A stretch of DNA of 15,754 nt. Origin: a virus. The stretch lies in UHGV virus genome UHGV-0069791; one strand, written 5' to 3'. Position 1 is the stretch's first letter, and each line of letters starts with the position of its first letter. Positions 5,826-6,033 of the stretch are shown one piece after another. The notes under the pieces are model-generated. The model worked only from the letters and a program-made list of their open reading frames with translations. It was not told the DNA's origin and did no database searches. Position numbers and translations under genes: made by a program.

Positions 5826-5872
5826 CCCGGTGGGGTGGCCTGCCACGGGGCGGGAGCGTCGCGGAAAAAGGC
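5826..5872. other. cos site (cosN-like cohesive-end region), lambda-type
   Basis: CCGGTG...ACGGGGCGGGAGCGTCGCGG aligns with the lambda end junction (...CCGGTGATCCGACAGGTTACG | GGGCGGCGACCTCGCGGG...) as I recall it. It lies about 180 bp upstream of the Nu1-like gene, as in lambda. Confidence 0.5.
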
Positions 5873-6020
5873 TAGTTTTTGCATTTTTATCGGCCACCAT
5901 CATCTTTGCATCTTATTGATTATTAATGGTTATTTGTTTTTTGCATGTCGAATTGAGTGTTTTTTGTTCGACATCGAACGCGTTTTCTTAAAGTTGTTCG
6001 CACGATGCATGTTTAAAGCT
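5873..6020. promoter_or_regulatory. cosB-like region with repeated putative small-terminase binding elements
   Basis: AT-rich segment with recurring TGCAT / GTTCGA-containing elements (TTTTGCATTTTTA, TTTGCATCTTA, TTTTTTGCATGTCGAA, palindrome GTTCGACATCGAAC, GTTCGCACGATGCATG) between cosN and the Nu1-like start. Confidence 0.35.
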
Positions 6021-6033
6021 CTCCGGAGGAAAT

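Follow-up and report, generated by a model that had tools for sequence, protein, structure and literature searches.

A predicted lambda-type cos site with a variant cohesive end and its own cosB in a lambdoid prophage related to PhiR40_1 and mEp460

Positions 5819-6033 of the window, that is, of the whole 15,754-nt stretch of DNA analyzed here, very probably (at a probability of roughly 0.85) constitute a complete and functional lambda-type cos of a lambdoid prophage related to PhiR40_1 and mEp460. The reading is carried by the anatomy of the sequence, by the position and orientation of its elements, which are conserved over approximately 100 loci, by the gene context and by the record termini of relatives. 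An earlier note on this DNA had placed a lambda-type cos at 5826-6033; the cos is indeed there, but the segment starts just to the right of cosQ (5819-5825) and misses it.

Judged by the open reading frames and their Pfam and PHROG family matches, the 15.7-kb window holds the late genes of a lambdoid prophage, in this order:

1604-2656, + strand: DNA methylase, the first in the gene order
between the DNA methylase and the lysozyme: holins
3358-3891: lysozyme
3873-4355: Rz
4455-5222, + strand: Rha-family regulator, between Rz and cos
6034-6525, + strand: small terminase, 163 aa, Pfam DUF1441, phrog_141 'terminase small subunit'
6525-8627, + strand: large terminase of the gpA type, 700 aa, GpA_ATPase and GpA_nuclease
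8618-8836: small ORF with only a sub-threshold Pfam match (DUF6148)
8764-10344, + strand: lambda-family portal ORF
10097-12316, + strand: ClpP-protease/major-capsid fusion ORF

Lying between the Rha gene and the small-terminase gene, the cos region occupies the canonical cos place, and the DUF1441 small terminase and gpA-type large terminase encoded directly downstream of it bear out the earlier proposal of a cos-packaging phage. Escherichia phages PhiR40_1 and PhiR55_1 match segment 5700-6100 at 100% identity, and similar sequence is found in 2168 of the 5426 complete E. coli genomes (approximately 40%). In the RefSeq E. coli genomes the small terminase beside the cos is labeled only 'DUF1441 family protein' and the cos is unannotated; among the NCBIfam models neither terminase subunit had a match.

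The left part of the site, where the DNA would be cut, comprises four elements:

5819-5825, + strand: cosQ GGGTCCT, the packaging-termination signal, a 7-mer identical to lambda cosQ
5845-5864: cosN, ACG/GGGCGGGAGCGT/CGCGG, with predicted nicks before 5848 (top strand) and after 5859 (bottom strand)
5848-5859, + strand: predicted 12-nt 5' cohesive end GGGCGGGAGCGT
5860-5890, + strand: cosN-proximal block CGCGGAAAAAGGCTAGTTTTTGCATTTTTAT, sitting where lambda has its cosN-right flank and I2

In the window, GGGTCCT-N17-22-ACGGGGCGG-N6-CGCGG, the composite signature of lambda, is found a single time (5819-5864), 175 bp 5' of the small-terminase gene, and in none of 200 dinucleotide-preserving shuffles. 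Both cosN (5845-5864, in 17 haplotypes) and the adjoining block 5860-5890 are unchanged within the window's own clade, CGCGGRAAAMGGCTAGTTTT is kept across genera, and GGGTCCT stands at the cosQ place in 98 of the 174 fetched loci. The alignment with lambda across the end junction that had been claimed earlier is real, CCGGTG (5827-5832), ACGGGGCGG (5845-5853) and TCGCGG (5859-5864) being all present. In addition to cosQ, the flanks ACG and CGCGG, the overhang length of 12 nt and overhang bp 1-6 are identical to those of lambda, and the conserved CG dinucleotides stand at both nick sites. Aligned in register with the lambda ends, 8 of the 12 overhang bases match, so the overhang is unlike that of lambda, as had been noticed before, at four bases (bp 7, 8, 9 and 11). 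Further to the right, bp 13-33 agree with lambda in 12 of 21 bases, but past bp 34 identity drops to 27%, the random level, which indicates that the cosB of the window is unrelated to that of lambda. Also, cosQ is 1 bp nearer the nick (22 bp from the top-strand nick here vs. 23 bp in lambda). As in lambda, cosN is GC-rich and gives way to an AT-rich cosB, which extends as far as the small-terminase gene (6034), and a gpA-type large terminase is encoded.

The variability of cosN was assessed in comparison loci fetched from IMG/VR (80 loci) and from one-genome-per-species GTDB contigs (80 loci). Among the fetched loci 46 distinct cosN cores share the frame CCACG/GGGCGG plus six variable bases/CGCGG(A/G)AAA, the right half reading, for example, CGCGCT, CGGACT, CTGGCT, CGTGCT, CGAACT or CGAGGT; a sister clade has CCGAG/GGGGCGAGGACA/CGCGG. 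These 46 variants all agree at bp 2 and 3 and for the most part at bp 1 and 4-6, and they vary at bp 7-10 and 12, with an information content of 1.0-2.0 bits at bp 1-6 and 0.4-0.6 bits at bp 7-10 and 12; the invariance of bp 13-17 is not independent evidence, since the anchoring pattern demanded CGCGG. The commonest 12-mer is that of the window, found at 72 loci in a sample skewed toward close relatives. Lambda-like phages are defined by such ends, differences at bp 7-12 are common (N15 at 9 and 12; Gifsy-1 at 8, 9 and 11), and cosQ is highly conserved (Feiss et al. 2015, PMC4669245). The variant overhang of the window is thus ordinary, changes at bp 7-12 being what is documented as normal (PMC4669245).

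Several loci depart from this frame in their own ways. Seven or eight of the mEp460-type IMG/VR loci (L039-L093) carry GGGCGGGAGCGG, with T changed to G at bp 12, beside the bottom-strand nick, and others have single changes at bp 7, 9 or 11, so that natural variation reaches the last overhang base. In the Stx1 prophage VT1-Sakai (L012, AP000400, ~494-520) there are 11 nt (GGGCGGGCGGG) and not 12 between ACG and CGCGG, which may reflect a displaced nick, an overhang of 11 nt or damage to the cos. Gifsy-2 (L011, NC_010393, ~525-560) has 14 nt (GGTGGCTTCGGGCT) in the same interval, and its cosQ place holds AGGTACT, a variant also seen in Rahnella, Proteus, Buttiauxella and other loci.

In the deposited records of relatives, the termini fall on the predicted nicks. 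The records of phages cdtI (AB285204) and Tritos (OV696610) both start with GGGCGGGAGCGTCGCGG and end with ...CCTGCCACG (...CCACG), that of cdtI starting with GGGCGGGAGCGTCGCGGAAAAAGG and ending with ...GGTGGCCTGCCACG; the opening 12-mer of both is GGGCGGGAGCGT, so that both records are opened at the very nick, and with the very overhang, that the earlier note had predicted. In phage LLS the homologous 12 nt are annotated as '5' extended single-strand cohesive site GGGCGGCGCGCT', and the record of Hafnia phage yong2 opens at the homologous bp 13 (CGCGGG...) and closes with ...CCGAG GGGGCAGCGACA, which marks the other nick. Record termini accordingly mark both nicks, bp 1 in cdtI, Tritos and LLS and bp 13 in yong2. 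Those of cdtI, Tritos and yong2 may have been chosen by homology instead of measured, and we would treat record termini as supporting evidence for the predicted ends, not as proof. The mEp460_4F5 record (LR595868; L006/L003) opens 5 nt left of the nick and is without 2 nt of cosN (GGGCGGGAGCG-CGG vs. GGGCGGGAGCGTCGCGG), probably because of faulty assembly over the cohesive ends.

To the right of cosN, the loci were anchored on the nick, with genome bp 1 corresponding to window position 5848. The candidate elements of cosB in the window are:

5892-5904 (bp 45-57), + strand: site A, R3-like candidate small-terminase site GGCCACCATCATC
5909-5921 (bp 62-74), - strand: I1-like IHF consensus match AATCAATAAGATG, with one mismatch to WATCAANNNNTTR
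5944-5952 (bp 97-105), - strand: site B, R2-like candidate, inverted (reverse complement TTCGACATG)
5967-5975 (bp 120-128), + strand: site C, R1-like candidate TTCGACATC, within the palindrome 5966-5979
5993-6011 (bp 146-164), + strand: site D, conserved block GTTGTTCGCACGATGCATG, lying where lambda has R1 (bp 151-166)

The order of an R3-like element (direct), an IHF consensus, an inverted R2-like and a direct R1-like element is fixed across approximately 100 related loci, and both order and orientation are those of R3-I1-R2(inverted)-R1 in lambda (PMC9026076; PMC4669245). The lambda elements lie at bp 50-65 (R3), 74-91 (IHF-like), 109-124 (R2) and 151-166 (R1), followed by the Nu1 ATG at bp 191 (PMC9026076); the terS ATG of the window is at bp 187. 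The position of site A matches R3 of lambda and also R3 of N15, at bp 48-60 (PMC9026076). An A-equivalent, TCATCATC or TCATCACC, begins at bp 43-48 in 86 of the 104 distinct cosBs, and sites A and C are more alike than in shuffled controls (7.74 vs. 6.29 matches of 9); the window's own site A fits the B/C motif weakly (5-6/9). Within the window, IHF consensus matches are not above chance (10 found vs. 12.5 expected). Across relatives, a match on the same strand with at most one mismatch begins at bp 62-64 in 28 of the 42 non-redundant cosBs, several of them perfect, and the core TTATTGAT is unchanged in the window's clade.

A repeat search showed that sites B and C contain the two arms of a perfect 8-bp inverted repeat, ATGTCGAA (5945-5952) and TTCGACAT (5967-5974), which describes better the GTTCGA elements reported in the earlier note. 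In the clade ATGTCGAA of site B is unchanged next to a polymorphic base at 5944, and site C is unchanged as well. More widely, TGTCGA(A/T) begins at bp 97-102 in 85 of the 104 distinct cosBs, and in all 85 paired loci the spacer between B and C is 14 or 15 bp (14 bp in the window), the centres of the two sites lying approximately two helical turns apart. The pair persists in Gifsy-2, where the arms are different (CAGTGTCGAA/TTCGACACTG). In lambda R2 and R1 are 26 bp apart, so that the geometry of the nucleoprotein complex may differ from that of lambda. Site D is common to the window and mEp460 clades and nearly invariant in each, and it matches the R motif weakly; it may be a further small-terminase site or a part of the translation-initiation region of terS. 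Over the 17 clade haplotypes, no change was seen in sites A to D or in the IHF core, while the intervening bases vary, which indicates ongoing selection.

Two other candidates for the recognized unit were rejected. The TGCAT repeats described earlier are enriched, four of the 15 copies in the window (5880, 5907, 5942 and 6006) lying within 174 nt, but they are not constrained as such: the copies at 5907 and 5942 vary (TACAT, TGTAT) among loci with 100% identical small terminases, and the first copy is replaced in sister clades, both of which argue against TGCAT as the unit recognized by the small terminase. To judge from this variation, the copies at 5907 and 5942 are probably not functional; that at 6006 falls in the conserved block D. 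The 14-bp palindrome GTTCGACATCGAAC is present at 5966-5979, as had been pointed out, but only its left half (TTCGACAT) is kept across clades, and the conserved feature is the inverted repeat with 5945-5952.

The small terminase matches Pfam DUF1441 with an E-value of 4.6e-44; it had no Phage_Nu1 match in Pfam, and BLASTP against lambda Nu1 gave nothing. Cross-matches between PHROG families are weak but reciprocal (the small terminase of the window to phrog_57 at 8e-9, Nu1 to phrog_141 at 6e-8), and hhalign against Nu1, at a probability of 8%, placed residues 8-30 on the Nu1 HTH. By these comparisons the protein is a remote Nu1 homologue and not a member of the Nu1 family (Phage_Nu1/phrog_57), so of the 'Nu1-like' protein in the earlier note the likeness in working stands and family membership does not. 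The AlphaFold (AF2) model of residues 1-63 (pLDDT 90) has the winged-HTH topology b-H(12-19)-H(23-29)-b-b-H. Its top Foldseek matches are MerR-type wHTH domains (BldC, RacA, MtaN), terminase DNA-binding domains (7lxs, 7lwr, 7lw0) and 6hn7_B, at TM 0.5-0.7 and all with E > 0.06, so that no match is significant; 6hn7_B is the chain from the PICI hijacking study. The Nu1 entry was not among the top 50, and a PDB search with the small-terminase profile returned only chance-level HTH matches. The large terminase has GpA_ATPase (PF05876, 8.6e-72) and GpA_nuclease (PF20454, 1.1e-85) domains, and is 25% identical to lambda gpA (E 5e-19). In both subunits the window thus departs from lambda, with a small terminase that lacks BLASTP similarity to Nu1 and a large terminase of low identity.

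Across clades, the R motif changes in all three positions together with the HTH of the small terminase:

HTH HRQTV..ARL: motif TC[AG]NCA[TC]C
HTH NRNMVARRL: motif GTGCAGC
HTH NRGTVKKRL: motif TGTCAC
HTH DRGTVRRRL: motif CACCACC

The cdtI-type HTH, HRDTVKKRL, goes with other cosB elements again, though cosN is the same. The phage had been proposed to have its own cosB specificity, and this covariation, together with the random-level identity to lambda cosB, supports the proposal; the GTTCGA elements of the earlier note are likewise supported. Residue 13 of the small terminase (window 6070-6072) is N where the motif ends in ...CAT(C), in the window, VT1-Sakai and the mEp043 clade, and S where it ends in ...CAC(C/T), in mEp460 and L098-L102, with one exception (L110, T13 with CAT). 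On this pattern residue 13 may be regarded as a candidate specificity determinant.

The known relatives share different parts of this arrangement. Phages cdtI and Tritos have the same cosQ, cosN and first ~30 bp rightward as the window, but their cosB diverges after about 97 bp and uses GGCGGCGGCA and TCACCTG-type elements, and their small terminase is 42% identical with another HTH, KIAEAFGLHRDTVKKRL; the cutting site is common to both, and the packaging specificity is probably different. Gifsy-1 has a lambda-like cos, ACG/GGGCGGCAGCGT/CGCAGG, with an overhang that is one base off that of the window, at bp 7, and with three R sites and an IHF site (PMC4669245; PMC9026076). Its Nu1, gpA and head genes are of the phage 21/lambda type, in contrast to the DUF1441 small terminase, the 700-aa gpA-type large terminase and the ClpP-capsid fusion of the window. 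Coliphages mEp460, mEp043 and LLS share both the DUF1441 small terminase (61-87% identity; 63% for LLS) and the cos layout, and differ in overhang bp 7-12. In addition, cosB of the mEp043 clade is 120 nt long vs. 177 nt in the window, and the closing bases of the R motif are CAC in the mEp460 clade vs. CAT in the window.

By homology to lambda, the nick positions in the window phage, the binding of small terminase and IHF and the role of each site can be predicted as follows. The predicted N-terminal winged HTH of the DUF1441 small terminase would bind the TTCGACAT-type sites A, B and C (5892-5904, 5944-5952 and 5967-5975), assisted by IHF bending the DNA at 5909-5921. Small terminase on cosB would then anchor the gpA-type large terminase at cosN, where nicking before 5848 in the top strand and after 5859 in the bottom strand would generate the 12-nt 5' ends GGGCGGGAGCGT. 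The cosQ at 5819-5825 would serve termination once the next cos arrives.

It may be asked whether a site of such anatomy is still in use, and where exactly it is cut. A cos that is lambda-like in sequence but left unused in a defective prophage is very unlikely here. Viability goes beyond what the window alone can show, the element is present in approximately 40% of complete E. coli genomes, where many such prophages are likely to be defective, and in some relatives the length of cosN has changed (11 nt in VT1-Sakai, 14 nt in Gifsy-2). Against these points, cosQ, cosN and all cosB sites are intact and identical to those of the deposited PhiR40_1 and PhiR55_1, which have named hosts, the ORFs for small terminase, large terminase, portal and protease-capsid are full length, and the candidate sites stayed constant in the 17 haplotypes while their flanks varied. 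Slightly less credible still is a cut outside the lambda register, giving ends of another length or polarity, or headful packaging. The low identity of the large terminase to gpA, the rotational symmetry of the 16-bp cosN core, which is 8/16 vs. 10/16 in lambda, and the 11 or 14 nt between the conserved flanks in the relatives just named would allow for it, but the gpA ATPase and gpA nuclease domains are both there, and another cutting register is unlikely because the nick flanks are conserved and record termini fall on both nicks. As to headful (pac) packaging, against which the earlier note had set its own reading, the large terminase is of the gpA type and the cosQ-cosN-cosB array is complete.

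The repeats and the palindrome 3' of cosN could also be read as RNA or transcription signals (a terminator, an attenuator or a translational operator of terS) instead of small-terminase sites. By score, the palindrome at 5965-5980 followed by CGTTTTCTT is a weak terminator-like hairpin, and block D and the TGCAT at 6006 are close to the ribosome-binding site of terS. Nevertheless, 5935-6033 folds no better than its shuffles (z = 0.01), Rfam gave no family match apart from a sub-threshold chance match to a eukaryotic lncRNA family, and relatives do not conserve the hairpin (GTTCGACATCTTTAT in VT1-Sakai, GTTCATCACTAAC in mEp460). What is kept is the DNA motif with its orientation and its 14-15 bp spacing, co-varying with the HTH of the small terminase, and we consider such signals the least probable of the alternatives. 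A, B and C are best taken as predicted small-terminase sites, 5909-5921 as a predicted IHF site and the whole as a cos in use.

Within the lambda-like cos class, which is already known, the site is ordinary. As the site is among the commonest prophage features of E. coli, its importance is mostly in annotation: the predicted genome ends (bp 1 = window 5848) are fixed for a prophage type in approximately 40% of the complete E. coli genomes. Mildly new, and in the comparative sense only, are the 14-15 bp inverted R2/R1-like pair, the HTH-motif covariation and the conservation of cosQ and cosN across very divergent terminases. One cosQ/cosN cutting site is common to terminases down to 25% identity and is paired with several interchangeable cosB/HTH specificities, which can be of use in predicting which helper packages which prophages, satellites and cosmids; the underlying principle is not new, having been established for lambda, 21 and N15, and is only extended here. 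More speculative, and in our view rather doubtful, is the idea that DUF1441 small terminases read cosB differently from lambda, the inverted R2/R1-like pair having the geometry of a MerR-type operator, which a single dimer occupies from one side of the helix, and that the HTH-motif covariation (e.g., residue 13 N vs. S tracking CAT vs. CAC) could let packaging-specificity classes be predicted from sequence. If true, such MerR-like reading would depart from, or add to, the lambda model, in which a dimer bridges R3 and R2 over the IHF hairpin.

A few further features of the window may be added. The 82-aa ORF at 5627-5875 (+ strand; phrog_17397, function unknown), listed as a hypothetical protein in related phage records, spans cosQ and cosN and would be split in linear virion DNA, so that its conservation may reflect the cos and not coding. 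The portal ORF and the ClpP-capsid fusion ORF share ~250 nt as listed, and the fusion gene probably begins at a start codon further inside its ORF. Finally, the N6/N4 DNA methylase (1604-2656, + strand), located 5' of the lysis cassette, and the Rha-family regulator (4455-5222) resemble accessory (moron-like) genes of the late operon.
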